From NCBI GenBank assembly GCA_964477035.1, contig CAYZCW010000003.1:31540-95539 (forward strand): 64,000 nt of DNA, written 5' to 3'. Source of the DNA: an uncultured Bacteroidales bacterium (lineage in GTDB: Bacteria > Bacteroidota > Bacteroidia > Bacteroidales > UBA7960). This document shows positions 687-58,024 of the stretch, one piece after another; the first letter of the stretch is position 1; every line of letters starts with the position of its first letter. Both the position numbers and the translations under genes were made by a program. The notes beneath the pieces were generated by a model. That model made no database searches, was not told where the DNA came from, and saw nothing but the letters and a program-made list of their open reading frames with translations.

Positions 687-1466
687 TCAGTCCCCCCTCC
701 TGCTTTTCTCGGGCAGGTACTTCCAGTAACGGACCGGCATGGCGCGGCGCATCTGCCGGTGGTTGCGGCGCTCCAGGATGTTGACGGCATCGTAGTAGCC
801 CTGCCAGAGCCGGCAATAAAAATCCTCGTCCAGGTCGCGGACCCCGGTGGCCAGGTTGCCGCTGCGCAGGTCGATGCGGTGGTTCTCCAGGACGATCTCC
901 CTGACCGCCAAGGTATCGTAATAGATGCCATACTGTCTGCGGGTGTCGTAGATCACCCACTTCTGTCCCCCGTAACGGTTCCTGAAATGCCGGGCCAGCA
1001 AACGAAGGATGTCGTGGTCGGGCGCCACCGGGGCGAAGTACATGCCGTCGGCCGTCTTCTGAAAGCGCACCAGCCCGTGGAAACGGTGCACTTCAAGCTT
1101 CACCCGCCGGGCCATCTGCACCAGCCGGAACACGGTTTCATCGAGCAGGTTCAGGTGGTACCCGGGGTCCCCTCCACGAAACACCTTTTCCAGGTACTGC
1201 CACAGCAGCATCTCGGTTTGCGGCTCCTGCGCCAGGAAAGCCACGTGCACCAGCCGGGCATTTTTCATGCTTGTTTTCTGTTCCAGCCCCTCCCACACCC
1301 GCCGGGCCTGGGTGTCGTTTCGTCGGATGGGCAAGAGGTCTCCCAGGGGCATCTGCACGCCCGGGCGTTCTGCCAGGATGGCTTCGGGGCGCTGCCGGCC
1401 GGCGAAGGCCCGGAACACCACCGTGAGGAAGCCTTCGAAAGTGCCGTCGTAAGTGTAGGTGGGCAT
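687..1466 (-). CDS. TIGR03915-family probable DNA metabolism protein (DUF4130), partner of the radical-SAM protein upstream
   Basis: 259 aa starting MPTYTYDGTFEGFLTVVFRAF, with FHGLVRFQKTADGMYFAPVAPDHDILRLLARHFRNRY. This is the typical family sequence, and it lies directly downstream of the TIGR03916-type gene. Confidence 0.8.
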   Translation of the reverse strand: MPTYTYDGTFEGFLTVVFRAFAGRQRPEAILAERPGVQMPLGDLLPIRRNDTQARRVWEGLEQKTSMKNARLVHVAFLAQEPQTEMLLWQYLEKVFRGGDPGYHLNLLDETVFRLVQMARRVKLEVHRFHGLVRFQKTADGMYFAPVAPDHDILRLLARHFRNRYGGQKWVIYDTRRQYGIYYDTLAVREIVLENHRIDLRSGNLATGVRDLDEDFYCRLWQGYYDAVNILERRNHRQMRRAMPVRYWKYLPEKSRRGD

Positions 1467-1501
1467 TGGTTGTTGGTTGTTGGTTGTTGGTGGTTGGCCA
1501 A
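1467..1501 (-). repeat. Heptanucleotide tandem array (about 5 units; minus strand reads CCAACAA x3, CCACCAA, TTGGCCA) abutting the start codon at 1466
   Basis: The plus strand reads TGGTTGT TGGTTGT TGGTTGT TGGTGGT TGGCCAA. It occupies almost the whole 38-nt spacer between the stop at 1505 and the ATG at 1466. Confidence 0.85.
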
Positions 1502-1504
1502 AGG

Positions 1505-2752
1505 CTAATCGCCGAAAGCCAATACCAGTTGGTTGGCGGGTTCCTTTTTATTTGTCAGCAGTTTGCGCCGGATCTGTTCCGGTGGCAGGGAGGCCGCAGC
1601 GGGGGGCAGTTCCCGGCACAGGATGAAGTAGCGGGCCCGGTTCAGCGCCACCCCCATGCGCCTGAGGTGGGTGAAGGTCACACTGCCGAAACGGCGGTTG
1701 GCCACGATCAGCCGGGCGGAGCGCACCCCGATGCCGGGCACGCGCAGGATCATTTCGTAAGGGGCCCTGTTCAGGTCGACCGGGAACTGCTGGGGATTGC
1801 GCAGGGCGAAGGCCAGCTTGGGATCCATGTGGGGATCGAGCGACAGGTGCTGTTCATCCAGGATCTCGTCGTAACGAAAGTGGTAGAAGCGCATCAGCCA
1901 GTCGGCCTGGTAGAGGCGGTTCTCCCGCAGCAGGGGCGGCTTCTGCAGGACGGGCAGGCGGCTGTCGCCGGGGTTCACGGGCACGAAGCCGGAATAGTAC
2001 ACCCTTTTGAGCTGCTGTTCCCCGTACAGGCCGGCGGCCAGCTTCAGGATGCCGAAGTCGGTTTCCGGACTGGCCCCGACCACCAGCTGGGTGCTTTGTC
2101 CGGCCGGGGCAAAGCGGGGTGCCTTTTTGTATTTGCGCCGCTCCTCCCGGCTTTCCAGGATGCCCTGCCGGATCTGGTTCATGGGGCTGTACACACTGGG
2201 ATAGTCCTTCTCTGGCGCCAGCAGCTTCAGGCTGGATTCGGACGGGATCTCGATGTTCACGCTGATGCGGTCGGCCCATAGCCCGGCCTCTGCCACGAGG
2301 CCGGGGGAGGCCCCCGGGATGGCCTTCAGGTGGATGTAGCCGTGGAAGCGGTGCTCCTGCCTCAGGGTCCGCGCCACGGCCACCAGGCGTTCCATGGTGT
2401 GGTCCGGGCTCACGACCACCCCGGAGCTGAGGAAAAGTCCCTCGATGTAATTGCGCCGGTAGAAATTCAGGGTGAGGTCCACCAGTTCCTTCACGGTGAA
2501 GGCGCTGCGGGGCACGTCGTTGCTGCGGCGGTTCACACAGTAGGCGCAGTCGTAGATGCAGTGGTTGGTATAGAGGATCTTGAGCAGGGAGATGCAGCGG
2601 CCGTCCTCCGTGAAGGAATGGCACACCCCGGCATGCACGGCATGGCCCAGGCCGTCTCCCCTGCTGCGGCGGCTGCCGCTGGAGGAGCAGGACACATCGT
2701 ACTTGGCCGCATCGGCCAGGATGCGCACCTTGCCCAGCACCTTGCCGTTCAT
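1505..2752 (-). CDS. Putative DNA modification/repair radical SAM protein (TIGR03916 type)
   Basis: 415 aa with the CxxxCxxC cluster (NHCIYDCAYC), the conserved N-terminus ILADAAKYDVSCSSSG, and a C-terminal helix-hairpin-helix-like segment (RVPGIGVRSARLIV). Confidence 0.9.
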   Translation of the reverse strand: MNGKVLGKVRILADAAKYDVSCSSSGSRRSRGDGLGHAVHAGVCHSFTEDGRCISLLKILYTNHCIYDCAYCVNRRSNDVPRSAFTVKELVDLTLNFYRRNYIEGLFLSSGVVVSPDHTMERLVAVARTLRQEHRFHGYIHLKAIPGASPGLVAEAGLWADRISVNIEIPSESSLKLLAPEKDYPSVYSPMNQIRQGILESREERRKYKKAPRFAPAGQSTQLVVGASPETDFGILKLAAGLYGEQQLKRVYYSGFVPVNPGDSRLPVLQKPPLLRENRLYQADWLMRFYHFRYDEILDEQHLSLDPHMDPKLAFALRNPQQFPVDLNRAPYEMILRVPGIGVRSARLIVANRRFGSVTFTHLRRMGVALNRARYFILCRELPPAAASLPPEQIRRKLLTNKKEPANQLVLAFGD

Positions 2753-2972: not shown

Positions 2973-3863
2973 TTACATCCAGCGGCGTGCCATGAAGACG
3001 GCGCCTGCGAGAATCAGGCCCAGGGCAAGGTAAAGGCCCCAGCCGGAGAGCGGCACGGGCGGGTAGTGGGGAGATTGCAGGAAAATAAAAGAGTCCACCA
3101 GCGTGTCGTCGCCGTCGGCAATCGCGAGTTTGACCGTATAGGTCTGCCCTGCCACCAAAGGCACATCGATCCCCATAGGGGTGGTGTGCCAGCCCAGCTC
3201 GTTGCCGGGGCTGTCACTGCCGTCAATGAAGAAGTCTTCGTTGACCGCCGGACCGAAATTGTTCACGGTCATCGCGTCGGCTGTACCCGGGATCAGGGCC
3301 ACATTGGTCCCGTTCACAAAGAGGGCGAAGGCATCATCATAGTCGATGATGGCGTTGGATTGTTCAAATGACCCAAAAACGATTCTCAGGGGCCAGAGGT
3401 CGCCCTGGGCCGTGAACTGGAACTCCAGCACGGCGGCATCGAACGTTCCGTCGGGTGCCGTGCTGATGGCATCCAGGTCCGGATCGCCGGGAAGTCCATG
3501 CTGGGCATTGATCGCGTTCTCCACAAAGGGATGGTGGATCAGGCCGCTGCTCATGACCACCCCGCCCCGGAGTCCAAGACCAGCCTGCAAACCATCACGA
3601 AACAGGCCGGCCGCGGAAACAGGCTGGTTCTCACTGTCCAGTCCCTGAAAGAAACTGGCATTGAGGATGGTGTAGGGCACATCCGGCCCTAACAAGGCTT
3701 CCACCAGGTCGGCCGCCGAGGTGGTCGTGCCGTCTACGGGGAGGATGGAGGCATTGGTCTGCATGGCCGAAAGCGGGGCCGGTCCGGTGCCCGGATCGCG
3801 CTGGGCCAGCAATGCCGGCACGCTTACCAGCAGGATAAAGGAAAGAATGGCAATTTTCTTCAT
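2973..3863 (-). CDS. Secreted choice-of-anchor L domain protein with an IPTL-CTERM-like C-terminal sorting tail
   Basis: The signal peptide is MKKIAILSFILLVSVPALLAQ. The core reads DLVEALLGP...GDPDLD...FDAAVLEFQFTAQGD...VFGSFEQ...DDAFALFVNGTNVALIPGT, typical of choice-of-anchor L. The tail is PPVPLSGWGLYLALGLILAGAVFMARRWM. Confidence 0.8.
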   Translation of the reverse strand: MKKIAILSFILLVSVPALLAQRDPGTGPAPLSAMQTNASILPVDGTTTSAADLVEALLGPDVPYTILNASFFQGLDSENQPVSAAGLFRDGLQAGLGLRGGVVMSSGLIHHPFVENAINAQHGLPGDPDLDAISTAPDGTFDAAVLEFQFTAQGDLWPLRIVFGSFEQSNAIIDYDDAFALFVNGTNVALIPGTADAMTVNNFGPAVNEDFFIDGSDSPGNELGWHTTPMGIDVPLVAGQTYTVKLAIADGDDTLVDSFIFLQSPHYPPVPLSGWGLYLALGLILAGAVFMARRWM

Positions 3864-3945
3864 GGCATCATGTTGTTTTAAGGGGAGCTTATTATGGGGT
3901 GCAAGTTAGAAAAAAAAACATTTCCTTCATCCTGTTGGAAAAAAT

Positions 3946-6228
3946 TTACCCCCTGTCGATACTGAACCTCAACCCCATGTAAAACATGCGCCCGGTGAGG
4001 GGTCCCCAGATCATGCTCCCGTCAAAATGTTCCCCGAAGGGGTTGCCCGGGTCGATGATGGGATGCTCCTGCCGGAAGCCGGTCAGGTTCTCCCCCCCCA
4101 GGTAAATGTCGAGATTGCGCCAGCGGTAGGTCACCTGGGCCAGCAGCAGGACATGGGCCGGCGAGGCCTCCGGGAAATGGAAGGCATCGGTGTGGTTGGC
4201 GATCACCGGGATGCGGCCGGGACCGTTGAACTGGGCCGTGGCATCGATCTGCCAGCGGTTGTTGCGGGTGGCGTAGGAGCCGGTGAGCAAACCCCGGTAT
4301 CGGTTCACGAAAGGCTTGGCAAGCAACTCCTCCCGGATGGTCATCTGCACATCGGAATAGCGCAGGGCCGCGGTCACTTCAAAGAACAGGAAAGGTTCGA
4401 AGCTGAACTCCAGCTGGTAGTTGTTGGCAAAAGACCGCCCGTTCAGGTTGTAGAAGCGGGCCTCACGGTAGTCGGTATCCACATCCACGACAAGCTGGTT
4501 CACGAACGTGGTGCGGTACACCTCGGCCGCCAGGGAGGCATCGCGGCCGAACAGCATCAGGTGGCGGGTGAGACTGCCCCCGGCATTCCAGGCCTGTTCG
4601 GGCAGGAGGTCCTCCAGGACCCTGAATCGTTTGCTGCTGACCAGCAGCCCGGTGTTTTCGGCGACCGGGTTGGGGATGCGGTAGCCTTTCCCGGCCGAGG
4701 CCCTGAAGGTGGTGCGCTCATCGATCGCATAGCGCAGGTGAAATCGCGGGGTAAAGAACGTGCCGAACAGGTTATGAAAATCCAGCCGCAGCCCGCCGCT
4801 CAGGGTCAGCCGCTCAGGCAGCTGGTAGGTGTATTGGAAAAAGGCGCCCGGCACCGATTCCCTGCGTGCAAACAGCGAGTCGCTGAGGGATTCGCTGTAA
4901 TCGTCCAGCAGGTAGCTGATTCCCGTGGTGAAGCGGTGGTCTGGATGTCCCAGGCTGTTCTCAAACAGGATGTTGGCGTAAAATGAATTCTGGGTGCCGT
5001 CGTATGGCCGCTGTCCGTAATGGGATGCCACGCTGTGGTGGGTGAAGCTGAGCTGGGTCCCCAGGCTGGCATCGGGCAGGCCCCGGAAGAAGAAACCCGT
5101 TTTGGCAAACGCCTCGTAGCGGCTGGTGTTCACCCCGAAACCGAAATAGCTGTCCGAGCCCCAGTTCTCCCCGTTCTCGAAAAAGGCGACCTGTCCCCCC
5201 TGGCGTTCCTCCTTCAGCACCCGGAAGCCAAACTGCGACTCCATCACCCCGGGGCGGTCGTAGCGGTAACGGTTGAGGATGTTGTATTTTTTCATCATCG
5301 GATGGTCCAGGAAGGCATTGTGGCTGTGGTCGATCTGGTTGTTCATGAACTCCCCGTGGGCCATGACCATGGTGCTCCACAGCGGGCTGAGGTCCACCGC
5401 CCCCAGAACGGAGCTCTCCAGCCTGCCAAAGTCGTTCGCGTAAAAATTGTAATAAAACCGTTCGGGTCCCTCGGGCTTCTTGAGCTCCACGTTGATCTGT
5501 CCCGTGATGGACTCGTAACCGTTGATCACGCTGGCCGAGCCTTTGGAGATCTGGATGGACTCCATCCACGGGCCCGGGATGAACCCCAGCCCGAACGGCT
5601 GACCCAGTCCGCGGATCGTGGGCATGTTCTCGGTCATGATCTGGCTGTAGGTCCCGGCAAGGCCCAGCATCTGTATCTGTTGGGCTCCCGATACCGCGTC
5701 ACTGTATGACACGTCGATCGAAGCGTTGGTTTCGAACGCCTCGCTGAGGTTGCAGCAGGCGGCCCGTTGCAGCTCGGTGGAAGTGATTACCTGGGTCATG
5801 ATGGGCTCCAGGGAAGACACATGGGTGCCCGGGCGCCTGCCGGCCACCACCACCTCGTTCAGTTCCCGGGTGGCCGACAGGATCACCTCCACCGACTCTT
5901 GTGCAGTGGTGATCATCAGGGTGTCGCTTTCGTAGCCGATGTAACTGACCACCAACTGGTGGGGCAGGCGGGAGGGCAGGGCCAGCCGGAAGGTTCCATC
6001 CGCACCGGTGGCCACCCCCTGGGTGGTTCCCAGCCAGAACACATTGGCCCCGGCCAGGGGCTGCAGGTGTTCGTGATTCCCCTGGGTTTCCCTCTCCATC
6101 ACCTTGCCCCTGAGGTATCCGGAAGATTGTCCCCTGGCGGGAATGGCCTGTAAAAACAGGAGAAATACAATCGCGGCGATCTGAACAACAGACCGTTGCC
6201 GGGCAACAAAGAATTGAATAAAAGACAT
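3946..6228 (-). CDS. TonB-dependent receptor with an N-terminal carboxypeptidase-regulatory-like domain
   Basis: 760 aa with a signal peptide, YLRGKV...GANV CarboxypepD_reg-like start, a plug region (SAVSGAQQIQMLGLAGTYSQI), and a C-terminal barrel ending MFYMGLRFSIDRG. Confidence 0.9.
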   Translation of the reverse strand: MSFIQFFVARQRSVVQIAAIVFLLFLQAIPARGQSSGYLRGKVMERETQGNHEHLQPLAGANVFWLGTTQGVATGADGTFRLALPSRLPHQLVVSYIGYESDTLMITTAQESVEVILSATRELNEVVVAGRRPGTHVSSLEPIMTQVITSTELQRAACCNLSEAFETNASIDVSYSDAVSGAQQIQMLGLAGTYSQIMTENMPTIRGLGQPFGLGFIPGPWMESIQISKGSASVINGYESITGQINVELKKPEGPERFYYNFYANDFGRLESSVLGAVDLSPLWSTMVMAHGEFMNNQIDHSHNAFLDHPMMKKYNILNRYRYDRPGVMESQFGFRVLKEERQGGQVAFFENGENWGSDSYFGFGVNTSRYEAFAKTGFFFRGLPDASLGTQLSFTHHSVASHYGQRPYDGTQNSFYANILFENSLGHPDHRFTTGISYLLDDYSESLSDSLFARRESVPGAFFQYTYQLPERLTLSGGLRLDFHNLFGTFFTPRFHLRYAIDERTTFRASAGKGYRIPNPVAENTGLLVSSKRFRVLEDLLPEQAWNAGGSLTRHLMLFGRDASLAAEVYRTTFVNQLVVDVDTDYREARFYNLNGRSFANNYQLEFSFEPFLFFEVTAALRYSDVQMTIREELLAKPFVNRYRGLLTGSYATRNNRWQIDATAQFNGPGRIPVIANHTDAFHFPEASPAHVLLLAQVTYRWRNLDIYLGGENLTGFRQEHPIIDPGNPFGEHFDGSMIWGPLTGRMFYMGLRFSIDRG

Positions 6229-6330
6229 GTTTGAAGCTTTTTAATGGTACACAATGGATGCTGCCATTGGCCGGGCATGCAGGATGCATGGTGGCTTTGC
6301 CGGCAGGTCGTTGTTGGGTCCGTTAAAAAG

Positions 6331-6825
6331 TCAGGAGGCGATCTTCAGATGGTGGGAAAAGAGGATGAACTCCCGTCCCGTGAGGCGGGGCGGGGGGTCT
6401 GTTTTGGAAGTACCGGATAAAGACTCCGGCTCCCTGTCGGTCAACAGGCCTTCGCCTGAAGCGAGGGCATGCAATACCACCAGGGCGGGGGCTTCCACCC
6501 GGACCACCGGGCGTTCGGAGGCCAGCTCCGCATCGTTTTTCAGGTACACCACCTCGATCCGGCAGCATCCGTCCGGCCCGTTCAACCCGCAGGCAGGAGG
6601 TTCAGCTGCCGGTCCCGGCAAGGCACAGCAGGCGGTTTCGCCAGCTCCATCCATGGGGTCGGCCTTCCCGGCATGGCCGCAGCAGTCCGGCTGTGCCGCC
6701 GCAAAAACGATGCCGGTGGTGTCACAGCCCATGCAGTGATGCACCAACAGCCTCATCCCGGTAAAGGAGACAAGAAAAAAGGCCGCAAGGAGCAGGGCGG
6801 TGGTCTGTCGGATGGTTTGAATCAC
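6331..6825 (-). CDS. Cys-rich small membrane protein (resembles the Bacteroidota HYC_CC_PP family)
   Basis: 164 aa with an N-terminal TM helix, then the HHCMGC, DCCGH, ACC, CG and GCC motifs and a PPP motif near the C-terminus. It sits between the HMA gene and the TonB receptor. Confidence 0.6.
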   Translation of the reverse strand: MIQTIRQTTALLLAAFFLVSFTGMRLLVHHCMGCDTTGIVFAAAQPDCCGHAGKADPMDGAGETACCALPGPAAEPPACGLNGPDGCCRIEVVYLKNDAELASERPVVRVEAPALVVLHALASGEGLLTDREPESLSGTSKTDPPPRLTGREFILFSHHLKIAS

Positions 6826-6875
6826 TGTGGCAAAAATACATTATTTCCGCCGGATCTGGTTCATTGACCAGCCGG

Positions 6876-7268
6876 CTACTTTTCGTCGTGCCGGCGGTTC
6901 TTCTTCAGCAGCTCCGGATCCCTTTCATAGATGCAGCAAGCGTGCAGATTGGCATGGGTTTCATCATCGGTCAGAAAGTTCTCGGTATCGTGACCCACCC
7001 TGGCCACAGCCCGTTCGATGCCCTCCTGATCGGCCCGGTCCGGCCGCCAGGTGACCGTCAGCTGCTGCGCCTGCTGGTCCCACGATGCCGAACGCACCCC
7101 CCGGACGCTGTAGGCGGCCTTTTCGATGCGGTCCTTGCACATGCCGCAGTTGCCCAATACGCGGAAGGTGGCCTCCCCGGGATTGTCGTCCTGGCCGGCA
7201 GCCAAAGCCTTACCGGCTGGAAGCATCAGCATGGTGGCAAACAGTATGGAAAATAAAGCTTTCATCAT
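6876..7268 (-). CDS. Heavy-metal-associated (HMA) domain periplasmic protein
   Basis: The start is taken at MMKALFSILFATMLMLPAGKALA (signal peptide). The metal-binding loop GNCGMCKDRIEKA is a variant of the GMxCxxC motif. The ORF-track start at 7328 was trimmed. Confidence 0.8.
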   Translation of the reverse strand: MMKALFSILFATMLMLPAGKALAAGQDDNPGEATFRVLGNCGMCKDRIEKAAYSVRGVRSASWDQQAQQLTVTWRPDRADQEGIERAVARVGHDTENFLTDDETHANLHACCIYERDPELLKKNRRHDEK

Positions 7269-7297
7269 TTCTGGTTTTATAGATTTTTCATTGAACA

Positions 7298-7305
7298 CAA
7301 AGTTA
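7298..7305 (-). promoter_or_regulatory. Candidate -7 box (TAACTTTG) for the HMA / Cys-rich / TonB-receptor operon
   Basis: Exact TAnnTTTG match on the minus strand, 29 nt upstream of the ATG at 7268. Confidence 0.4.
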
Positions 7306-7381
7306 TTTAAAATCGTTCTACATAGCAAAGGCCTGGGCCTTAAAAAATCTTAATAATTCACCTATTTTTCTATCAACACCC

Positions 7382-8020
7382 ATGAAACACGGATTGTTTT
7401 CAAAAGTTTGCTGGCTTCGAAGCCTGCCGGGCCTTCGCCATCACGTCATCCTGTGGCTGATGGCCATCCCCATCCTTGTCATGGGCCAAAACCAGCACCG
7501 AAACATGACCGTCAACATCAGGGACAACGACCCGGGCAAGTATCCCGTGCAGCGCTCCGAAGAGGCCTGGAGGGAATTGCTCGACCCCATACAGTTCCGG
7601 ATCCTTCGCCTGGCGGGCACCGAAAGGGCTTTCACGGGCAGGTATCACGACTCGAAGGAGTCAGGAATATATTACTCGGCCGCCACGGGGCAGCCATTGT
7701 TCGCAGCCGACACCAAGTTCGATTCGGGCTGCGGCTGGCCCAGCTTCTACGCTCCCATCACCCCGGGCTCCGTTTATTACCGCACGGATAGCTCCCACGG
7801 CATGGTCCGCACCGAGGTGATCGACTCCGCCAGCGGATCCCACCTGGGGCACGTATTTGATGACGGACCCCCGCCCACCGGGCTGCGTTTCTGCATGAAC
7901 AGCGCCGCCCTGATCTTCGTGCCATTCGGGGAGGAACCGCCCCCCATCGTGCGAAAGTACATGAACGAACTGGCCAGCGAGGAGGAAAAACGGTCGGTGG
8001 GGCGTTACCTAAGACCTTAG
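7382..8020 (+). CDS. msrB: Peptide-methionine (R)-S-oxide reductase MsrB with an N-terminal hydrophobic extension
   Basis: Contains LAGTERAFTGRYH...FDSGCGWPSFYAP...GSHLGHVFDDGP...RFCMNSAAL, i.e. the MsrB catalytic Cys and zinc-less variant motifs. The start codon is uncertain. Confidence 0.9.
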   Translation: MKHGLFSKVCWLRSLPGLRHHVILWLMAIPILVMGQNQHRNMTVNIRDNDPGKYPVQRSEEAWRELLDPIQFRILRLAGTERAFTGRYHDSKESGIYYSAATGQPLFAADTKFDSGCGWPSFYAPITPGSVYYRTDSSHGMVRTEVIDSASGSHLGHVFDDGPPPTGLRFCMNSAALIFVPFGEEPPPIVRKYMNELASEEEKRSVGRYLRP

Positions 8021-8127
8021 GAAGTTGTGATTTTCGGGGAGTTGCCCGCGGCGGGGATGGGTCCGGCATGGTATGCTTTGCTGAATGCCGGAACCCACTG
8101 CCCGAATGTGGCCCCTTTTTAAATGGG

Positions 8128-8160
8128 AAAACCCTGTCCATCGTTCGATGGACAGGGTTT
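8128..8160 (-). terminator. Hairpin terminator immediately 3' of the initiator tRNA
   Basis: On the minus strand AAACCCTGTCCATC-gaac-GATGGACAGGGTTT is followed by TCCCATTT. The stem is a perfect 14 bp. Confidence 0.5.
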
Positions 8161-8165
8161 CCTTG

Positions 8166-8237
<72 letters not shown>

Positions 8238-8317
8238 CTCTGTGTTATTCAGGATGCAAAAATAGGGAATAAACCACGACTTACCAAATCTTTGGAAATA
8301 ATTTTGCGGAAAAGGGC

Positions 8318-8325
8318 TAACTTTG
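8318..8325 (+). promoter_or_regulatory. Candidate -7 box (TAACTTTG) for era
   Basis: Exact TAnnTTTG match, 30 nt upstream of the ATG at 8356. Confidence 0.35.
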
Positions 8326-8355: not shown

Positions 8356-9231
8356 ATGCACAAGGCAGGCTTCGTAAACATCCTCGGCAACCCCAACGCC
8401 GGAAAGTCCACCCTCCTGAATGCCATCCTGGGGGAGAAGCTGGCCATCATCACCCCTAAGGCGCAAACCACCCGCCACCGCATCATGGGCATCGCCAACG
8501 GGGAGGATTACCAGGTGGTTTTTTCGGATACGCCGGGGGTCATCAGCCAGCCCAATTACAAGCTGCAGGAGCAGATGATGCGCTCTGTGCGCAGCACCCT
8601 GGAGGATGCCGACCTGTTCATCCTGCTGACGGAGTTGGACAAGGACTTTGATGAGCCCGGCATGCTGGAGAAAATCGGGGGAATGGGAACCCCCGTCATG
8701 GTGTTGATCAACAAGATCGACCTGGGCACCCAGGACCGTGTCGTGGCCAAATGCGAACAGTGGAAGCAGGCCCATCCCGGATGGATGGTCCTGCCCATCT
8801 CAGCCCTGACCGGATTCAATGTGCCCGAGGTATTTGTCAAGGTCCTCGAACTGATGCCCGAATCCCCGCCCTATTTCCCCAAGGACGAGGTGACCGACCG
8901 CCCCGTTAGGTTTTTTGTGGCCGAGATGGTCCGTGAGAAGATCCTTCTGAACTACCAGAAAGAGATTCCTTATTCGGTGGAGGTGGAAGTGGAGTCCTAC
9001 AAGGAAGGTGCCCAAATGGACCATATCCGGTGTGTAATCCATGTGGCCCGTGAAACCCAGAAAGGTATCCTTATCGGCCATCAGGGGAAGGCGCTGAAAA
9101 AAGTCGGGACCGACGCCCGAAAAGACATCGAAGTCTTCCTGGGCAAGAAGGTCTTTCTGGAGCTCCACGTCAAGGTAACCAAAAACTGGCGGGAAGACGA
9201 AATGAAACTCCGCCGCTTCGGCTACCAATAA
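8356..9231 (+). CDS. era: GTPase Era
   Basis: Starts [26 protein letters not shown] (G1), followed by [17 protein letters not shown] and a C-terminal KH domain. The ORF-track start at 8323 was trimmed. Confidence 0.95.
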
Positions 9232-9301
9232 CCAACCGCCAACAACCAACCGCCAAAAGCCAACCGCCAACAACCAATAGCCAACCGCCAACAGCCAACC
9301 C
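9232..9301 (+). repeat. Heptanucleotide tandem array, 10 units (CCAACCG CCAACAA CCAACCG CCAAAAG CCAACCG CCAACAA CCAATAG CCAACCG CCAACAG CCAACCC)
   Basis: Strict 7-nt periodicity starting directly after the era stop (9229-9231). It ends 10 nt before the der ATG at 9312. Confidence 0.9.
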
Positions 9302-9311
9302 CCCCCACCCC

Positions 9312-10619
9312 ATGTCCAACATCATCGCCCTTGTGGGCCGCCCCAACGTAGGCAAATCCACCCTCTTCAACCGCCTGGTGCAGCAGCGTGCCGCCATAGT
9401 CGACCCCACTGCCGGGGTCACGCGCGACCGGCATTACGGAAAAAGCGACTGGAACGGCATGGAATTCTCCGTGATCGACACAGGGGGCTACGTGGTGGGT
9501 TCGGAGGATGTATTCGAGGAACAGATCCGCCAACAGGTCGCCATCGCCATCGAGGAGGCCACGGTCGTGTTTTTCCTGGTCGATGCCATGGAAGGAATCA
9601 ACCCGATGGACGACGAAGTGGCCGGGATGCTGAGGCGCAGCGGCAAAACCACCCTGCTGGTGGCCAACAAGGCCGACAACGGACGCATCATGAACGAGGC
9701 GGCCGTATTCTATGAACTCGGGCTGGGCGCCGTCTATCCCGTTTCTTCCATCAACGGGAGCGGCACCGGCGAACTGCTGGACGAGGCCGTCAAGCTCATG
9801 TCAGACATCCCCGATGAGGAGCCGGAGGAGGACCTGCCGCGCATCGCGGTGGTCGGGCGGCCCAATGTGGGCAAATCCTCCCTGATCAATGCCCTCATCG
9901 GACAGGAACGAAATATCGTCACGGACATCCCGGGCACGACCCGCGACACCATATACACCCGGTACAAATCCTTCGGGTTCGACTTTTACCTGGTCGACAC
10001 GGCCGGGCTGCGGAAAAAAGGCAGGGTCTCGGAGAATATTGAGTTTTACAGCGTGATGCGTTCGATCCGTGCCATCGAGAATTCGGATGTCTGCCTGGTG
10101 ATGACGGACGGCACCCAGCCCTTTGAAGCACAGGACCTGAATGTGTTCGGACTTGCCACCAGGAACAACAAAGGGGTGGTCGTCCTGGTGAACAAATGGG
10201 ACCTGGTCGCCAAGGACACCCATACCGCCAAAGAGTATGAGGCCAGGATCCGGGAACGGACGGCCCCGCTGAAGGACATTCCCGTGCTGTTCACTTCGGT
10301 GCTGAACAAACAACGCATTCACAAGGCCATCGAAACGGCCCTGCAGGTGTATGCCAACCGCATCCGAAAAGTATCCACCAGCCAGCTCAACGACCACCTG
10401 CTGCCGCTGATCCAGGCCACCCCTCCCCCGGCGGTCAAGGGCAAATACATAAAAATCAAGTATGTGACCCAGCTTCCCGTACATTATCCGGCATTTGCCT
10501 TCTTCTGCAACCTGCCGCAATACATCAGGGAGCCCTATGCCCGTTACCTGGAGAACCAGATCCGCAAAAAGTGGGACTTTACCGGCGTGCCCATAAAAAT
10601 CTATTTCCGCAAAAAATAG
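9312..10619 (+). CDS. der: Ribosome-biogenesis GTPase Der (EngA), two GTPase domains
   Basis: Contains [13 protein letters not shown] in domain 1 and [15 protein letters not shown] in domain 2, plus a KH-like C-terminus. Confidence 0.95.
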
Positions 10620-10702
10620 GGATGGGGTGCAAAAGAGGCCTTCCCCATCCGACGATTAAAACAAAAAACCAAGGTGCAGACGGCCGCATCGCATACCAAG
10701 CC

Positions 10703-11086
10703 ATGACCGAAGACCAGGGACCCAGGATAGACAAATGGTTGTGGGCCGTTCGGGTGTTCAAGACCCGCAGCCAGGCCACCCAGGCCTGCCGCGGCGGCAA
10801 GGTGAAGGTGGATGATGCGGAAGTGAAACCGTCGCGGGAAGTCAGGAAGGGCATGGTGATCACCGTGCAGCACGGCCCGGTCAGACGCACGGTCAGGGTG
10901 CTGGAGCCGCTGGAAAAACGGGTGGGGGCCAAGCTGGTGGAAACCTATATGGCCGACCTCACCCCGGAGGAGGAATACCGGAAGCTGGAGATGATCCGCG
11001 CCCGTCAGCAGATGAGGCCCCGTGGAAGCGGACGGCCCACCAAGAAGGACCGGCGCGATATGGACACCTGGTTTGGATGGGATTGA
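10703..11086 (+). CDS. S4-domain RNA-binding protein (Hsp15/HslR-like)
   Basis: Contains RIDKWLWAVRVFKTRSQATQACRGGKVKVDD, an S4 fold signature. The start is taken at the ATG at 10703 (MTEDQGP), because the upstream part of the ORF overlaps the der 3' end and the intergenic region. Confidence 0.8.
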   Translation: MTEDQGPRIDKWLWAVRVFKTRSQATQACRGGKVKVDDAEVKPSREVRKGMVITVQHGPVRRTVRVLEPLEKRVGAKLVETYMADLTPEEEYRKLEMIRARQQMRPRGSGRPTKKDRRDMDTWFGWD

Positions 11087-11100
11087 ACGGGCGGACCTTC

Positions 11101-12837
11101 TTACCCGGCCTGGCGGGGATCCGTTGCAGGCAGGGTGAAGTAGAAACAAGTGCCTTTGCCTTCTCCTTCCGATTCCACCCGTATTTTACCCCCATGCATG
11201 CGGATGATGCGCTCGACCAGGGTGAGGCCCAGGCCGGTGCCCTCGGTCCGGCTGTCCAGCTTGCTGAACAATGTGAAGATGTTTGACTGCTGGGCGGGGT
11301 CGATGCCGATGCCGTTGTCGCGGACAAAGAATTCCGGCCGTTCGGGATCCTTATTGGAGCCGATACGAATTTTCAGGGCATGCTCGGGTGATTTGAATTT
11401 GATGGCATTCTCGATCAGGTTCTGGAAAACCACCATGATGCGGGAACGGTCCGCATACACGTCCGGCAGCTGCGGGTCCAGATGGACGCTGCAGCCATTG
11501 CGGCTGATCACACCGTGCAGGTGCTCCAGCACGTCGTAGACCAGCTTGTTCATGGACACTTTCGAGAAGGGGTCAGTGACCTTTCCCAGGCGGGACAGCC
11601 GCAACAGGTCCTCCAGGAGCTTGTGCATCTTGGCGATGGCCTTCTGAGCCCTCACAATGTGGCTGTCGACCCCTTCCAGATTGCCTTCACGGGCATCGTC
11701 CCGGATCAGGCCCAGGAAGCCTTCCACTGTGACCAGCGGACTGCGAAGGTCGTGCGATACGCTGTAGGTAAAGCGGTCCAGTTCTTCATTGACCCGTTCC
11801 AGCTCCTCCATCTGCTGCAGGATGATGGTCTCGGCACGGACCCTGTCGGAGATGTCGAAGTAGACCCCGATGATCCCGCCGGGCTGGCCGTCCGGGTTGA
11901 GAAAGACCGATTTGTTCATGACCACGTAGATGTGCTTGCCGTCCGGCAGGTCGATCTTCGTTTCCAGGCTCAGGCCCTGCCGGGTCTCCAGCAACTCCCT
12001 GTTCTTGTCCATGAAGATTTTTGCCTGCCTTTTGGAGAACATGTCGTACACGGTGTGCCCGACAATCTCGTCCAGGCTCTTGCCCACCAGCTGGCAGAAG
12101 GCTTTGTTGCATCCCAGGTAGGTGCCTGCCGGATCCTTGTAAAACAGGGGAAAGGGAATGCTTTCGATGATGACGTTCAGGAAGTCGGCATAGTACTGCA
12201 GGGACTTCTCCGCCTGCTTCTGCTCGGTAATGTCCGAGATAAAGCCCTCTATGTAGAGGAGTTTCCCTTCGGGACTGAATACGCCCTGTCCCTGTTCGAG
12301 AACCCATTTGACCACCCCGGAACGGGCGTTGATGCGGTAGCTTAAGCGGTATTGCTCCCTGGCGTTGACCTTTTCCAGCACCCCGTCACGGACACTGCGG
12401 CGGTCTTCCGGGTGGATGACGCGGGCATAGGTGATCAGGGTGCTGCCCTCCAGGGCTTCCGCCGGGTACCCGGTCAGCTCCTCACAGCCCCGGCTCACAA
12501 ACAACATGGTCCAATGCTTGTCGTTCTTGCAGCGAAAGGCCATGCCGGGCAGGTTCGACAGCAGGGTGGACAATTTTTGTTCGGACTCTTCCAGGGCCTT
12601 TGTATAGCTCCGGCGGGTGCGTTCCAGGCGGTTGAGCAGGCGTTTGAGCAGGACAACCAGCAGCAGGGTGGTGATACCGACATACAACCAGCCCTTATGT
12701 GTCTGGGCGGTCCGGATGGACGCCGGGTCTCCGACCCAGACATCAATCACCCAGTCCGAAAACAAAATCCAAAGCCCGCCGATCAGGGCATACAAAAAAG
12801 GGATTCTGATGGCGGGGGAAATCTTTTTCCAGGTCAT
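11101..12837 (-). CDS. Membrane-anchored PAS-domain sensor histidine kinase
   Basis: Two N-terminal TM helices and two PAS-like segments, followed by HisKA (FTYSVSHDLRSPL) and HATPase_c (DNGIGID...GTGLGL). No adjacent response regulator is present. Confidence 0.9.
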   Translation of the reverse strand: MTWKKISPAIRIPFLYALIGGLWILFSDWVIDVWVGDPASIRTAQTHKGWLYVGITTLLLVVLLKRLLNRLERTRRSYTKALEESEQKLSTLLSNLPGMAFRCKNDKHWTMLFVSRGCEELTGYPAEALEGSTLITYARVIHPEDRRSVRDGVLEKVNAREQYRLSYRINARSGVVKWVLEQGQGVFSPEGKLLYIEGFISDITEQKQAEKSLQYYADFLNVIIESIPFPLFYKDPAGTYLGCNKAFCQLVGKSLDEIVGHTVYDMFSKRQAKIFMDKNRELLETRQGLSLETKIDLPDGKHIYVVMNKSVFLNPDGQPGGIIGVYFDISDRVRAETIILQQMEELERVNEELDRFTYSVSHDLRSPLVTVEGFLGLIRDDAREGNLEGVDSHIVRAQKAIAKMHKLLEDLLRLSRLGKVTDPFSKVSMNKLVYDVLEHLHGVISRNGCSVHLDPQLPDVYADRSRIMVVFQNLIENAIKFKSPEHALKIRIGSNKDPERPEFFVRDNGIGIDPAQQSNIFTLFSKLDSRTEGTGLGLTLVERIIRMHGGKIRVESEGEGKGTCFYFTLPATDPRQAG

Positions 12838-12922
12838 CTATACCTACGGCTGGTTGCACGCTTAAAACCACCGCAATATAAAAATTTAATTCGATGGGGC
12901 CCCCGGGTCCCGCCATTTTTTA

Positions 12923-12930
12923 TATTTTTG
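12923..12930 (+). promoter_or_regulatory. Candidate -7 box (TATTTTTG) for the M20 dipeptidase gene
   Basis: Exact TAnnTTTG match, 50 nt upstream of the ATG at 12981. Confidence 0.35.
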
Positions 12931-12980
12931 TCCGAAACACACCCATTCTGTCAAGTAAAAAATTTTATAATCAAGCTTTT

Positions 12981-14351
12981 ATGAACGACCTGAAGAATTA
13001 TATCCAAGAGAACAAAGACCGGTTTCTGAGCGAACTGTTCGAACTGATCCGCATCCCTTCCATCAGCTCCAAGGAGGCCCATAAGGAGGACATGTACAAG
13101 GCGGCCCGTTGGATCCGGGAGATGCTGGTAAAGAAAGGGGCGGACATGGCCGAAGTGCTCGATACGGACGGTCACCCGGTAGTATATGGGGAGAAGCTCA
13201 TCGACCCGGCCCTGCCGACAGTTCTGGTGTACGGGCATTACGACGTACAGCCCGTGGAGCCGCTCGACCTGTGGAAGAGTCCGCCCTTCGAGCCGGAGGT
13301 ACGCGACGGCAGGATCTATGCCCGGGGAGCTGATGACGACAAGGGTCAGATGTTCATGCATTTTGCCGCCTTTGAATACCTGGTAAGCACCGGGCAGCTT
13401 CCGGCCAACGTCAAGTTCATGATCGAGGGGGAGGAAGAGATCGGGTCTCCCAGCCTGGGAAAATTTATGGAAGTCAACCGGGAAAAACTGGCCGCCGATG
13501 TGATCCTGGTGTCGGATACCTCCATGCTGGGGGCCTCGAATCCATCCATCACCACCGGTTTGCGCGGGCTTTCCTACGTGGAGGTTCATGTCACCGGTCC
13601 GAACCGCGACCTGCATAGCGGCCTGTTTGGCGGGGCCGTGGCCAACCCCATCAATGTGCTCTGCACCATGATCGGCAGCCTGATAGACGAAAAAGGCAGG
13701 ATCACCGTGGAGGGGTTCTACGATGACGTGGAGGTGATCTCCCCGGAGGAGCGGGCCGAGATGGCACGCGCCCCGTTCGATGAGGAAGCCTATAAAAAAG
13801 CCCTGGACATCAAGGCGGTGCATGGAGAGAATGGGTATTCCACCATGGAGCGCACCGGCATACGGCCCACCCTGGACGTGAATGGCATCTGGGGCGGTCA
13901 TACCGACAAGGGCGCCAAAACGGTTCTGCCCTCGGAGGCCCATGCCAAGATCTCCATGCGCCTGGTTCCCCACCAGGATTCGGTAAAGATCACCGAATTG
14001 TTTAGGAAGCACTTCCTGGCCATCGCCCCTGATTACGTGAAGGTCGAGGTGGAATTCCTGCACGGGGGGGAAGGGTACGTCTCTCCCACCGACACCCTCG
14101 AATACCAGGCAGCCAGCAAGGCATACGAAGAGACCTACGGCAAGAAGCCCATTCCGGTGAGGAGCGGCGGCAGCATCCCGATCATCTCCCTGTTTGAGAA
14201 GATCCTGGGGATCAAGTCCATCCTGATGGGATTCGGACTGGAGTCGGATGCCATCCACTCTCCCAACGAGAACTATCCCCTGGAACAATTCTTCAGGGGC
14301 ATGGAGACGATCCCCTACTTCTACAAGCATTATGCAGACATGAAGAAGTAG
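12981..14351 (+). CDS. M20-family dipeptidase / metallohydrolase
   Basis: Starts MNDLKNYIQENKDRFLSELFELIRIPSISS and contains GHYDVQP, RGADDDKGQ and EGEEEIGS metal-ligand motifs. Confidence 0.85.
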   Translation: MNDLKNYIQENKDRFLSELFELIRIPSISSKEAHKEDMYKAARWIREMLVKKGADMAEVLDTDGHPVVYGEKLIDPALPTVLVYGHYDVQPVEPLDLWKSPPFEPEVRDGRIYARGADDDKGQMFMHFAAFEYLVSTGQLPANVKFMIEGEEEIGSPSLGKFMEVNREKLAADVILVSDTSMLGASNPSITTGLRGLSYVEVHVTGPNRDLHSGLFGGAVANPINVLCTMIGSLIDEKGRITVEGFYDDVEVISPEERAEMARAPFDEEAYKKALDIKAVHGENGYSTMERTGIRPTLDVNGIWGGHTDKGAKTVLPSEAHAKISMRLVPHQDSVKITELFRKHFLAIAPDYVKVEVEFLHGGEGYVSPTDTLEYQAASKAYEETYGKKPIPVRSGGSIPIISLFEKILGIKSILMGFGLESDAIHSPNENYPLEQFFRGMETIPYFYKHYADMKK

Positions 14352-14372
14352 CCGGACCCATTCCGGGGAATT

Positions 14373-14422
14373 GGCCGGCTGCGGCCGCGGAATGATTCCG
14401 CGGCCGCAGCCGGCCCTTTTTA
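14373..14422 (+). terminator. Rho-independent terminator after the dipeptidase gene
   Basis: A perfect 21-bp inverted repeat, GGCCGGCTGCGGCCGCGGAAT / ATTCCGCGGCCGCAGCCGGCC, is followed by CTTTTTAT. Confidence 0.8.
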
Positions 14423-14545
14423 TAAAAAATTTTCCTGCGCTATAAAAATTTTTCTATTTTCGCAGGGCGCCCTTAAACACACGTATAACGCCTCGTTCCC
14501 GGGTAGGAATATCATTCATCGTGTCAATCATAATTTCTTTTTATC

Positions 14546-29471: not shown

Positions 29472-29576
29472 TTGGCTATTGGCTATTGGCTATTGGCTGT
29501 TGGCTGTTGGCTATTGGCTGTTGGCTGTTGGGTTTAGGCTTTTGGCTGTTGGGGGTTGGTGGTTTGGCGGGGGTTG
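29472..29576. repeat. Heptanucleotide tandem array, 15 units (TTGGCTA x3, TTGGCTG x2, TTGGCTA, TTGGCTG x2, then 7 degenerate units)
   Basis: Strict 7-nt register read directly from the sequence. It lies between the divergent uvrA and MMPL genes. Confidence 0.9.
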
Positions 29577-46117: not shown

Positions 46118-46491
46118 GGGGCTGATATGGATTAGACAGCAGGTCTGGTGGGAGTGTAAGCATGCCGAGCGTCGTGATTCTGGCTCGTAAATCCCAGGCG
46201 CATCGCCTATAAACGGCAACTCTAACTACGCAATGGCCGCTTAATAACAGTTATTAAGCGCCGTTTGTTTCCCGGGAAGCCACGCCTGGCCGCGTCCCCA
46301 AGGAAACATCATCAAAAGCCGGGATACGTCATGCAAGGCCCTGGTGCATGGCCGACAATCAAAAGGGCTCAGGCAAGCGGTGGGGCCGCCTGTTCCCAGC
46401 CGCAAGCCGAATCCAAAACTACAGGATAAGCATGTAGAAAGCATTTCTGTCGCTTGTTTGGACGAGGGTTCAAATCCCTCCAGCTCCACCA
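46118..46491 (+). ncRNA. ssrA: tmRNA (SsrA), tag peptide GNSNYAMAA
   Basis: The 5' end GGGGCTGATATGGATTAGAC and the 3' end GGACGAGGGTTCAAATCCCTCCAGCTCCACCA form the tRNA-Ala-like domain. The tag reading frame is GGC AAC TCT AAC TAC GCA ATG GCC GCT TAA TAA at 46215-46247. Confidence 0.95.
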
Positions 46492-46532: not shown

Positions 46533-46656
46533 ATGCCTGGATGCGTGGATTTGATTTTTGCCATAAATATCATACCTTTATGTATACGCATATTGATATA
46601 ATTATTTAAAATCGACAAAACAGACAATTGTGGCTACTCAAGGACAGGTGCTGGAC

Positions 46657-47226
46657 ATGTCCCCCCTGGGCATGGTATTCACCGTAATAAAAAGCAAAGC
46701 CGACACGGACGGGAAAGCCCTTGAACTGGAATGGGAATTGCTGCCCGGATGCAATATGGTGGATCCACTCCACCACATTCATCCGCATGCCATGGAAACC
46801 TACCATATCCTTGAAGGAGAAATGGAGTTTTTTATCAGGGACAAATGGGTCCGTGCAAAAAAAGGGGATCGCCTGGTCGTGGAGAAAGGCGTCAGGCACA
46901 CCTTCAGGAACCCGACAGACTCCGTCGTGAGGGTCTTTAACACGCATGAACCGGCCCTCGCCATGGAGGATTATTTTGAAGACGTGGTCAGGGTGATCGA
47001 TGTGGCAAGCAACAAGCGGACAAGAAAAGTCAGCATGAAAAACCCGAGGTCCATGCTGTTGTTCGGGGTACTCATGCGCAATTACCGCAAGGAAATCATC
47101 GCCGTGAAACCCCCTGATCTCCTGGTGCGGGTAATGGGAGGGATTGCCCGTGTCCTCGGCGTGGACTACAGGAAAGGGGACATCAGGCCACCCTATGCAG
47201 CCGCACCAGCAGGAAACCGGCCATGA
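46657..47226 (+). CDS. Cupin-domain protein
   Basis: Contains HIHPHAMETYHILEGEMEFFI...GDRLVVEKGVRHTFRN, a two-motif cupin signature. The start is uncertain (GTG 46630 or ATG 46657). The 3' end overlaps the convergent gene by 44 bp. Confidence 0.7.
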   Translation: MSPLGMVFTVIKSKADTDGKALELEWELLPGCNMVDPLHHIHPHAMETYHILEGEMEFFIRDKWVRAKKGDRLVVEKGVRHTFRNPTDSVVRVFNTHEPALAMEDYFEDVVRVIDVASNKRTRKVSMKNPRSMLLFGVLMRNYRKEIIAVKPPDLLVRVMGGIARVLGVDYRKGDIRPPYAAAPAGNRP

Positions 47227-47896
47227 GGATCATGCCTAAAGCAAGCGCCCAGTCGGATAGCGGCACGGATGCGGGTGGCTCTCCTTCCACGTTGCCCAGG
47301 CATAAAAGGACATTCGAACTCGTTACCACCCAAGTGTTGGAAAGTCTTTGAAGTACATTCCCCCCTGAATAAACAGTCCAGGCAAAACCCTCACTGCAAG
47401 TCGCCCCTTTCCTGGTAATCCCGATCCAGCCATTCAACTGGGTAATGGTGGTTTCCAGGGGGATATCGATCTGATAATGGTTTGTTGGCCCCCAGGGGGT
47501 AGTCCCCACGAGGGAGGTGGCGCCGGTCAGGCTTCCGGAGAATACCAGGACGCCGCCGGTGGATGGGTTTCCGTTCCAGATGAATACATCAAAGGCTTCG
47601 GTGTCATTCATGGAACAACCAAAATAATCCCCTCCCCAGACCCGGATCATGTTGAATGGGGCGGTGGCAGCGTAATCATCAGCAACGAGGTCTCCTGGTT
47701 CCCCTGCCTGAGAGAAATATCCATTGTCATAGGAGCCGAATACCTGACTGAAAACAGCCCCGGAAGGACAAACGAATTCTTCGTCCAGCATTACAGGCGT
47801 GATCGGGCCTTCCTCCGGTGACCGCACGGAGGAAACCTGAGCCATGGAGGCCGAGGCCAGCAGAATCATAACCAATACTGACAGAATCTTTTTCAT
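47183..47896 (-). CDS. Secreted protein of unknown function with an IPTL-CTERM-like C-terminal sorting tail
   Basis: The signal peptide is MKKILSVLVMILLASASMAQ and the tail is PPASVPLSDWALALGMILMAGFLLVRLHRVA. The tail has the same architecture as that of the 2973..3863 protein. Confidence 0.7.
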   Translation of the reverse strand: MKKILSVLVMILLASASMAQVSSVRSPEEGPITPVMLDEEFVCPSGAVFSQVFGSYDNGYFSQAGEPGDLVADDYAATAPFNMIRVWGGDYFGCSMNDTEAFDVFIWNGNPSTGGVLVFSGSLTGATSLVGTTPWGPTNHYQIDIPLETTITQLNGWIGITRKGATCSEGFAWTVYSGGNVLQRLSNTWVVTSSNVLLCLGNVEGEPPASVPLSDWALALGMILMAGFLLVRLHRVA

Positions 47897-49796: not shown

Positions 49797-49859
49797 CCAA
49801 TAGCCAATAGCCAACAACCAACAGCCAAAACCCAATAACCAAAAGCCAACAGCCAATAC
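49797..49859 (+). repeat. Heptanucleotide tandem array, 9 units (CCAATAG x2, CCAACAA, CCAACAG, CCAAAAC, CCAATAA, CCAAAAG, CCAACAG, CCAATAC)
   Basis: Strict 7-nt register. The array ends 9 nt before the pyrB ATG at 49869. Confidence 0.9.
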
Positions 49860-57996: not shown

Positions 57997-58024
57997 TGTT
58001 GGATATTGGCCATTGGCTATTGGA
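57997..58024 (+). repeat. Heptanucleotide array, 4 units in the G/T orientation (TGTTGGA TATTGGC CATTGGC TATTGGA)
   Basis: It fills the 31-nt spacer between the stop at 57994 and the ATG at 58026. Confidence 0.75.

Follow-up and report, generated by a model that had tools for sequence, protein, structure and literature searches.

A conserved C-terminal tail of uncultured Bacteroidales proteins as a predicted sorting signal, with a candidate exosortase-family enzyme

Two genes in a 64 kb stretch of DNA from an uncultured Bacteroidales bacterium (contig CAYZCW010000003.1; the whole stretch is hereafter referred to as the window) encode proteins with a similar 27-residue C-terminal tail. Protein A is a choice-of-anchor L protein of 296 amino acids (aa) encoded by gene A (2973..3863, minus strand), and protein B is an uncharacterised protein of 237 aa encoded by gene B (47183..47896, minus strand). 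From their sequences, both tails were assigned as diverged copies to a well-conserved family of predicted sorting signals of uncultured Bacteroidales, which is not catalogued in the model libraries. The tail domain itself, its fixed position and conservation, its several copies per genome, its unrelated cargo proteins and their signal peptides were observed directly.

The members of Bacteroidota are usually described with two surface routes, type IX secretion (T9SS) and lipoprotein export. The tail family points to a Bacteroidales surface-protein route besides these two and, if the proposed enzyme is true, it would be the first defined substrate signal for a Bacteroidota exosortase. A searchable signal (218 clusters), a candidate enzyme and a cargo list make an exosortase-type pathway in Bacteroidota directly testable. 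Moreover, hundreds of 'hypothetical proteins' from anaerobic digester, activated sludge and related metagenome-assembled genomes (MAGs) could be relabelled as predicted envelope-sorted proteins. These results, obtained from sequence evidence and with a tentative link to the enzyme, are of interest for protein sorting and for the cell envelopes of Bacteroidota.

The tail family and its two copies in the window

The translation of positions 2973-3062 (minus strand), PPVPLSGWGLYLALGLILAGAVFMARRWM followed by a stop codon, closes the open reading frame (ORF) of protein A and reads exactly as reported in an earlier note on this DNA. The 27-residue tail (residues 270-296, VPLSGWGLYLALGLILAGAVFMARRWM; 2976..3056, minus strand), located by translation and by a hidden Markov model (HMM), is composed of a VPLSGW motif, the hydrophobic stretch GLYLALGLILAGAVFMA and the basic end RRWM. 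This is the three-part design of the exosortase/PEP-CTERM class (motif, helix and basic end) that the note had recognised. The C-terminus of protein B reads ...PASVPLSDWALALGMILMAGFLLVRLHRVA and then stop, its translated end being VPLSDWALALGMILMAGFLLVRLHRVA; the tail, located in the same way (27 residues, 211-237; 47186..47266, minus strand), comprises VPLSDW, ALALGMILMAGFLLV and RLHRVA. Counted from the C-terminus, the tails of proteins A and B stay in register along a gap-free alignment, with 26 residues from Pro to the end in each, and 9 of 27 residues are common to them. The bodies of the two proteins are unrelated, and the earlier claim of a second protein with the same tail was upheld.

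To avoid circularity, an independent tail HMM was trained on 115 tails, none of them from protein A or B. It scored 35.9 bits on protein B and 22.9 bits on protein A, and nothing else among the six-frame ORFs of the window scored above 0. Likewise, no score above 0 was obtained for 64 other choice-of-anchor L homologs with different C-termini, including those with PEP-CTERM and IPTL-like tails. All matches of the tail HMM above 10 bits sit at the end of an ORF (9,757 six-frame ORFs, ~620 kb of DNA). Scoring the six-frame ORFs of the window with the tail HMM gave no third copy of the tail. As the only sequences of the window to score, and on a model from which they had been left out, both tails were identified as real but diverged members of the family. 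They keep the P, S and W of the motif and have Ala, Gly and Leu in place of the consensus Ile and Phe; in protein A, Gly follows Trp at the position where 98% of the tail family has Ala. The G+C content is 60% in the window versus 42-52% in other tail-carrying genomes, and the Ala, Gly and Leu substitutions may be read as fitting the higher G+C of the window.

A profile of 27 positions was prepared from the two window tails and eight tails like those of the protein B homologs, and 1.84 billion representative proteins were searched with it. The search retrieved 218 clusters at E<=1e-3, 15 of them at E<=1e-10, so that the tail is found on proteins well beyond the window, as the note had anticipated. 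Of the 150 best matches, 149 had the tail at the C-terminus itself or no more than a few residues away from it, and in 118 of the 148 with a recognisable motif the distance from Pro to the end was exactly 26 residues. The consensus is [VI]-P-[VIL]-S-N-W-A-L-[FY]-[IL]-G-I-G-L-I-x-x-F-x-V-[IV]-R-F-R-[RK]-x-x. Among the 148 members, conservation was highest in the motif (P2 100%, S4 88%, N5 81%, W6 100%, A7 98%), in the helix (G11 91%, L14 99%, F18 85%, with G13 common) and in the basic end (R22 97%, F23 82%, R24 92%, R/K25 97%). Positions 7-21 are hydrophobic, and a helix is predicted there in the models of proteins A and B. A word-indexed homology search with the tail alignment yielded only 8 candidates, together with 4 short fragments.

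The selection test covered codons 14-27 of 47 distinct tail DNAs, a segment that neither retrieval pattern covers. The first, second and third codon positions showed a nucleotide identity of 0.65, 0.86 and 0.44, respectively, and an average pair of tails showed 4.25 synonymous versus 5.36 amino-acid differences over the 14 codons. These values indicate that selection acts on the tail peptide, the DNA having drifted, also between unrelated genes of one genome. The conserved L14, F18 and R-F-R-[RK] are not accounted for by membrane-helix composition.

The carriers of the tail were traced in genomes and metagenomes. The strict back-translated DNA pattern P[ILV]S[ND]WAL[FY]IGI gave 14 matches in 11 DNA stretches among 185,579 species genomes, all of them in six MAGs titled 'Bacteroidales bacterium' with 4, 3, 2, 2, 2 and 1 copies. 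Further tail carriers are also named Bacteroidales at NCBI, and every genome match was an uncultured Bacteroidales MAG. A metagenome scan added 55 loci, and the contig names that give a source say activated sludge. The tail genes occur up to three in tandem (triplets in loci L015, L048 and L060), and the window contains two copies in 64 kb. According to a simple rule, signal peptides are present in 96 of 120 full-length carriers; 94 of the 108 family members with a signal-peptide-like N-terminus have an x-Q cleavage pattern, and a lipobox occurs in almost none of the carriers. After removal of the tail, 142 bodies fell into 41 groups unrelated by BLAST. The domains predicted in the bodies of the 148 members included choice-of-anchor R (6), J (4), L (3) and D (2), as well as DUF11, Big_1, cohesin, Laminin_G_3, GEVED and others. 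The occurrence of the tail on 41 unrelated body groups, with several copies per genome and within a Bacteroidales lineage, agrees with the dedicated sorting system suggested in the earlier note.

Two groups of tail proteins stood out. A sub-type of the tail ending in ...ATLFIYRRRMS, with Y-R-R-R instead of R-F-R-R, is carried by proteins of ~255 aa (L072, L076-L080), and in several loci an ExbB/ExbD/TonB-like gene set, recognised by eye, follows the genes of this sub-type. The second tail-bearing family, with bodies ending in ...GFDDVTFGSITPGP, is encoded directly upstream of, and co-directionally with, a gene for an 822-aa outer-membrane barrel (domains CarboxypepD_reg, Plug and OMP_b-brl_3) in 8 of 8 loci (L014, L030, L033-L036, L050 and L055). 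This family and its barrel make up a second, independent pairing of tail proteins with TonB-receptor-like proteins.

The candidate enzyme and the proposed processing of the tail

To search for an enzyme, all ORFs of 71 loci (~458 kb) were clustered, and the multi-helix ORFs were screened. The screen gave one relevant locus, L060, which belongs to a Bacteroidales MAG (HOW25378-82) and contains three tandem tail genes on the plus strand (7028-8320, 8498-10084 and 10578-12524). The product of the first of these cargo genes is 33% identical to protein A of the window over 288 residues. A convergent gene pair on the minus strand lies at most 300 bases from the tail genes and encodes a 175-aa membrane protein and a 203-aa exosortase/archaeosortase-family protein. 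The 175-aa protein (HOW25381.1), which matches no family, is predicted to have four transmembrane segments. The 203-aa protein passed TIGR04178 at 50.7 bits, against a cutoff of 23, and PF09721 Exosortase_EpsH at 28.6 bits, against 25.7, which places it in the family. It was below the cutoff of every named subfamily matched, the best-scoring being pacearchaeosortase (45 bits, cutoff 80), archaeosortase B (41, cutoff 150), XrtH (37.8, cutoff 86) and XrtX (34, cutoff 170); the XrtF model gave no match at E<=0.01. At NCBI this enzyme (HOW25382.1) is named 'exosortase/archaeosortase family protein [Bacteroidales bacterium]', and its accession is consecutive with those of the cargo and partner genes. 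An extracytoplasmic function (ECF)-type sigma factor gene, which flanks the exosortase gene, and uvrA come after it; the exosortase gene with its two flanking genes is in the region 12820-14690 (minus strand). The same layout, with one tail gene beside an exosortase-family gene, was found in L081, where the enzyme is 88% and UvrA 89% identical to those of L060 within a wider synteny. Since the organism of L081 is a close relative of that of L060, this locus adds little independent weight. The contigs of two diverged relatives of the L060 array end at the gene. The L060-type exosortase-family gene is the best candidate for the sorting enzyme, its link to the tail being tentative.

The closest enzyme system on record in Bacteroidota is XrtF of Flavobacteria, the exosortase system described for the phylum. 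The L060 layout resembles it in pairing a small exosortase gene with a small membrane-protein gene, that of the 'exosortase F system-associated protein' in the XrtF case. In Flavobacterium johnsoniae, xrtF and its adjacent gene are both needed for surface colonisation and biofilm formation, and the substrates are unknown (PMC10936215). The two systems differ in that the L060 enzyme does not match XrtF at the above threshold, its 175-aa partner matches nothing, and a candidate substrate signal is in hand.

Other neighbours of the tail genes were considered and rejected as the enzyme. A CotH protein with a peptidase M28, a sigma-54 two-component system with HlyD and an ABC permease, and an ExbB/ExbD/TonB-like trio (recognised by eye from sequence and gene order only) recur beside tail genes and reflect local synteny, as do the TonB-receptor-like barrels. 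GldF, an AraC-type regulator, a ClC channel and SppA-like proteins were also examined and discarded. A 760-aa neighbour in L012, L015 and L020, of the same size as the TonB-dependent receptor of the window, proved to be a CotH protein.

The following route is proposed. The N-terminal signal peptide would direct Sec export, with signal peptidase I cutting before Gln, and the tail helix would stop the transfer, so that the protein stays in the inner membrane with its R-x-R-[RK] cluster on the cytoplasmic side and its VPxSNW motif at the periplasmic face. A small membrane-embedded exosortase-type enzyme could recognise VPxSNW together with the helix and remove the helix; it would probably hand the protein over to another anchor for display at the envelope, possibly beside TonB-dependent receptors. 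Export and retention in the membrane follow from the sequence; we infer the removal of the tail, the identity of the enzyme, the hand-over and the final location from the analogy with PEP-CTERM, PGF-CTERM and related systems and from the L060/L081 neighbourhood. In one diderm bacterium, a protein with a predicted IPTL-CTERM domain makes up the surface layer (PMC8671808), so such tails can lead to the cell surface. That the tail is a sorting signal cut by a dedicated exosortase/archaeosortase-family enzyme is considered moderately probable. A broader proposal, to which we give somewhat less than even credence, is a third envelope route in uncultured Bacteroidales, in which a new minimal exosortase subfamily and its four-helix partner would serve tens of cargo proteins per genome, among them partners of TonB receptors, through the cognate VPxSNWAL...RFRR signal.

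Several observations weigh against cleavage by an exosortase. The tails of the window itself are diverged, that of protein A the most, and no exosortase-family gene was detected in the window or within ~7 kb beyond each end; the window and its flanks contain housekeeping genes only. Among the 71 loci (~458 kb), the adjacency of tail and exosortase genes occurs in one lineage only, and the rough estimate of its probability by chance is a few percent. The identity at the second codon position is partly expected of any membrane helix.

The limitation of the exosortase adjacency to one lineage also leaves room for a true sorting signal handled by a different intramembrane enzyme, either a rhomboid-type rhombosortase or a CPBP/myxosortase-type glutamic protease, in which case the L060 exosortase would be coincidental or serve another substrate. 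All the sorting-signal evidence applies equally to this explanation, the helix glycines (G11 and G13) recall the substrates of intramembrane proteases, and one contig has two rhomboid genes at a distance of 6 kb from the gene of a protein B homolog. However, this rhomboid pair was rejected as the enzyme: it was seen once, is not adjacent to the tail gene and comes after mutL, which is a common housekeeping layout in Bacteroidota. In addition, the neighbourhoods of the 71 loci show no recurrent rhomboid or CPBP gene, and the tail motif contains neither the invariant Cys of the MYXO-CTERM type nor the Gly-Gly of rhombosortase signals. Another enzyme is thus regarded as rather improbable.

It is unlikely that the tail is a permanent, uncleaved C-terminal anchor that holds periplasmic proteins in the inner membrane and owes its conservation to common ancestry and the shuffling of modules. 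For such a topology, a signal peptide together with a positively ended helix at the C-terminus would suffice, and hydrophobicity alone explains part of the conservation at the second codon position. An anchor, however, does not need the invariant P...W-A, the fixed 26-residue distance, L14, F18 and R-F-R-[RK] on 41 unrelated bodies, and the synonymous sites are near-saturated while the tail peptide is kept. Moreover, the cargo domains carry processed surface-sorting signals elsewhere, and tail genes stand beside genes of outer-membrane receptors.

Relation to known sorting signals

All eight features listed by Haft for tripartite sorting signals (10.1101/2023.06.07.544157, section 5) were found in the tail; they include a hydrophobic helix followed by 2-5 basic residues, signal peptides and otherwise unrelated carriers. 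Two libraries, NCBIfam release 20 and Pfam, were scanned with the whole proteins and with the tails alone, and neither window tail reached the cutoff of any sorting-domain model. The CoaP_CTERM and LAVTG models gave tail A 18.5 and 18.6 bits, respectively; both values are below the cutoff and are not common to the consensus tails, and these assignments were discarded. The absence of the tail from the curated libraries is probably explained by its carriers being all uncultured.

The earlier note had likened the tail most closely to IPTL-CTERM. The resemblance holds for the design. Both tails are 27 residues long and stand at the extreme C-terminus of a signal-peptide-bearing body, with a helix and an Arg cluster; both have a hydrophobic residue and Pro at the start of the motif and Trp and a small residue at its end; and choice-of-anchor L bodies carry both types. 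Membership did not hold: neither the two window tails nor five consensus tails matched the IPTL-CTERM model (TIGR04174, cutoff 20.5 bits) at E<=10. The motif VPxSNWA has one residue fewer between Pro and Trp than IPTLxxWG, its helix and R-F-R-[RK] end are far more conserved, and it occurs in Bacteroidales, whereas IPTL-CTERM is found mainly in Proteobacteria. By these sequence tests, the tail belongs to neither IPTL-CTERM nor PEP-CTERM, although by design it most resembles the former.

The choice-of-anchor L homolog P0013 (336 aa), which served as a control in the tail scans, has an IPTL-like tail, AAIPTLTTWGLIIFGIALLGFISWVFLRRRK, which scored higher on 'midcut-by-XrtH' (25.8 bits) than on IPTL_CTERM (TIGR04174, 14.3 bits). 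Exosortase H is named 'IPTLxxWG-CTERM-specific' by NCBI. The statement of the note that no enzyme is known for IPTL-CTERM therefore looks outdated, and the P0013 match is in line with this; a literature search on XrtH or IPTLxxWG found nothing relevant. That the tail is an ordinary but diverged member of the proteobacterial IPTL-CTERM family, processed by an XrtH orthologue, is very improbable. In favour of this reading one could cite the similar design, in which the motif opens with Pro, Ser, Trp and a small residue, the single member of 148 that touched TIGR04174 (E 0.0075) and the rank of XrtH among the best four subfamilies for the L060 enzyme. They are outweighed by the missing TIGR04174 matches, by the Pro-to-Trp spacing and by the family HMM, which gives no score to the P0013 tail; moreover, the L060 enzyme is not XrtH by score, reaching less than half of that cutoff. 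As to the likeness of tails A and B themselves, chance between low-complexity hydrophobic C-termini, for which their mere 9 common residues might speak, is hardly credible and was refuted by the profile search, the independent HMM and the ORF-end test, the register with the C-terminus being the same and the homologs of protein B connecting its tail to the consensus form.

With the PEP-CTERM/exosortase system (EpsH, XrtA), the tail shares the three-part signal. The candidate enzyme passes the exosortase/archaeosortase signature and Exosortase_EpsH, and one enzyme would serve many cargo proteins per genome in both. The new tail differs in having no PEP motif; the PEP-CTERM model (TIGR02595, cutoff 16 bits) did not match the window tails, the consensus tails or the 148 members, and no exopolysaccharide locus was seen nearby. 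As a control in the same run, the PEP-CTERM tail of the choice-of-anchor L homolog P0002 scored 29.1 bits on TIGR02595. The candidate enzyme of L060 is ~200 aa long, in contrast to ~500 aa for the XrtA type. VPXXXP-CTERM signals, the substrates of archaeosortase B, start with Val-Pro as does the new tail, and the small enzymes of this kind (also pacearchaeosortase and XrtX) are of similar size. However, the new tails had no match to TIGR04143, and the L060 enzyme is far below the subfamily cutoffs.

T9SS domains (Por_Secre_tail, CHU_C) are the usual C-terminal tags of Bacteroidota surface proteins and are found on similar cargo, including choice-of-anchor domains. T9SS C-terminal domains are folded beta-sandwiches of 70-100 residues (PMC11285876), whereas the new tail is a 27-residue helix tail. 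No T9SS C-terminal domain was matched by Pfam or NCBIfam in proteins A and B, whose C-terminus is a single helix. The HMM comparison called for in the note thus shows the tail to be neither an ordinary T9SS nor a PEP-CTERM domain. The note had presented it as standing instead of a T9SS domain, a statement that calls for a qualification: in related contigs, genes whose products end in a T9SS C-terminal domain lie a few kb away from tail genes (by eye also in L060, L071 and L072). As both kinds are encoded in the same contigs, the tail supplements T9SS and does not replace it.

Genes A and B and other features of the window

Gene A was identified by ORF call and encodes a signal peptide, a choice-of-anchor L body and the sorting tail; an identical copy of protein A is present on 15 contigs from four public sources. 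The signal peptide (residues 1-20, MKKIAILSFILLVSVPALLA, with Gln next; 3804..3863, minus strand), recognised from sequence features, has a positive n-region, a hydrophobic core and an LLA|Q site without a lipobox Cys. The Gln at +1 agrees with the Q-rule of Bacteroidetes (PMC5837995). The choice-of-anchor L domain named in the note was confirmed at residues 53-264 (3072..3707, minus strand) by NF038133 choice_anch_L (E 4.1e-36, 124.5 bits, cutoff 27), which establishes membership, and PF26766 is the precomputed Pfam match for the body. In the AlphaFold model (49 homologs; mean predicted local distance difference test, pLDDT, 80.7), the body is a beta-sandwich, and residues 274-295 form one long helix. 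The fold of the body is weakly similar to PA14/CBM-type sugar-binding beta-sandwiches (best E 9e-4). Choice-of-anchor L homologs in other lineages and phyla end in PEP-CTERM, LPXTG/LAXTG-like, SLH, OmpA or CHU_C modules.

A TonB-dependent receptor gene (760 aa; 3946..6228, minus strand; Pfam CarboxypepD_reg, Plug and TonB_dep_Rec_b-barrel) is located 82 bases from gene A on the same strand, and the N-terminus of its product is SusC/RagA-like. The receptor is part of the context outside the signal itself and a possible functional partner, for which protein A may be an accessory binding protein. Both genes belong to a one-strand run of four genes (2973-7268, minus strand) that starts with a gene for a CopZ/HMA-like metal-binding protein (6876-7268) and continues with that of an uncharacterised 133-aa protein (6331-6732), the receptor and protein A. 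Directly beside gene A, a radical SAM gene and a DUF4130 gene form a pair (687-2752, minus strand); one source names the radical SAM product 'putative DNA modification/repair radical SAM protein'.

Gene B, also identified by ORF call, encodes a signal peptide, an uncharacterised beta-sandwich body and the tail. The body had no match in the Pfam or NCBIfam scans, and its comparison with the PDB by Foldseek yielded nothing significant. Choice-of-anchor R was rejected as the body type, the model giving no match to the close relatives of protein B. The predicted structure (pLDDT 67) contains a helix at residues 215-236. Five homologs with 42-47% identity occur in Bacteroidales MAGs and all keep the tail, which reads [VT]P[IV][ST][ND]WAL[FY]IGI... 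and ends in RFR[RK]xx. The tail-encoding end of gene B overlaps the 3' end of a convergent cupin gene (46630-47226, plus strand) by 44 bases (47183-47226), and the overlap is also present in public gene calls. A transfer-messenger RNA (tmRNA) gene (46118-46491, plus strand) with the tag GNSNYAMAA is 0.7 kb from gene B. The third-position G+C is lower in gene B and its surroundings (46.2-48.4 kb), at 0.61 versus about 0.8 in the neighbours, and a short piece of DNA may have been acquired here, at the tmRNA gene.

The Shine-Dalgarno core was found in just 3 of 34 window genes, and the signal peptides of the window follow the Q-rule. Together with the occurrence of protein B homologs in Bacteroidales MAGs, these two features make the window look like DNA of Bacteroidota. 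A tandem heptanucleotide, (CCAAYAR)n, occurs at 1466-1490 (minus strand), 9225-9298 (plus strand), 29472-29552 (minus strand), 49797-49856 (plus strand) and 58013-58023 (minus strand), and 24 exact matches to CCAAYARCCAA were counted, with 0.1 expected by chance. Each of the four longer runs is on the coding strand, just upstream of the start codon of der, uvrA, pyrB or the DUF4130 gene. The leaders are C/A-rich and G-poor, within a genome almost without Shine-Dalgarno sites, and may serve as translation leaders or as a regulatory element.

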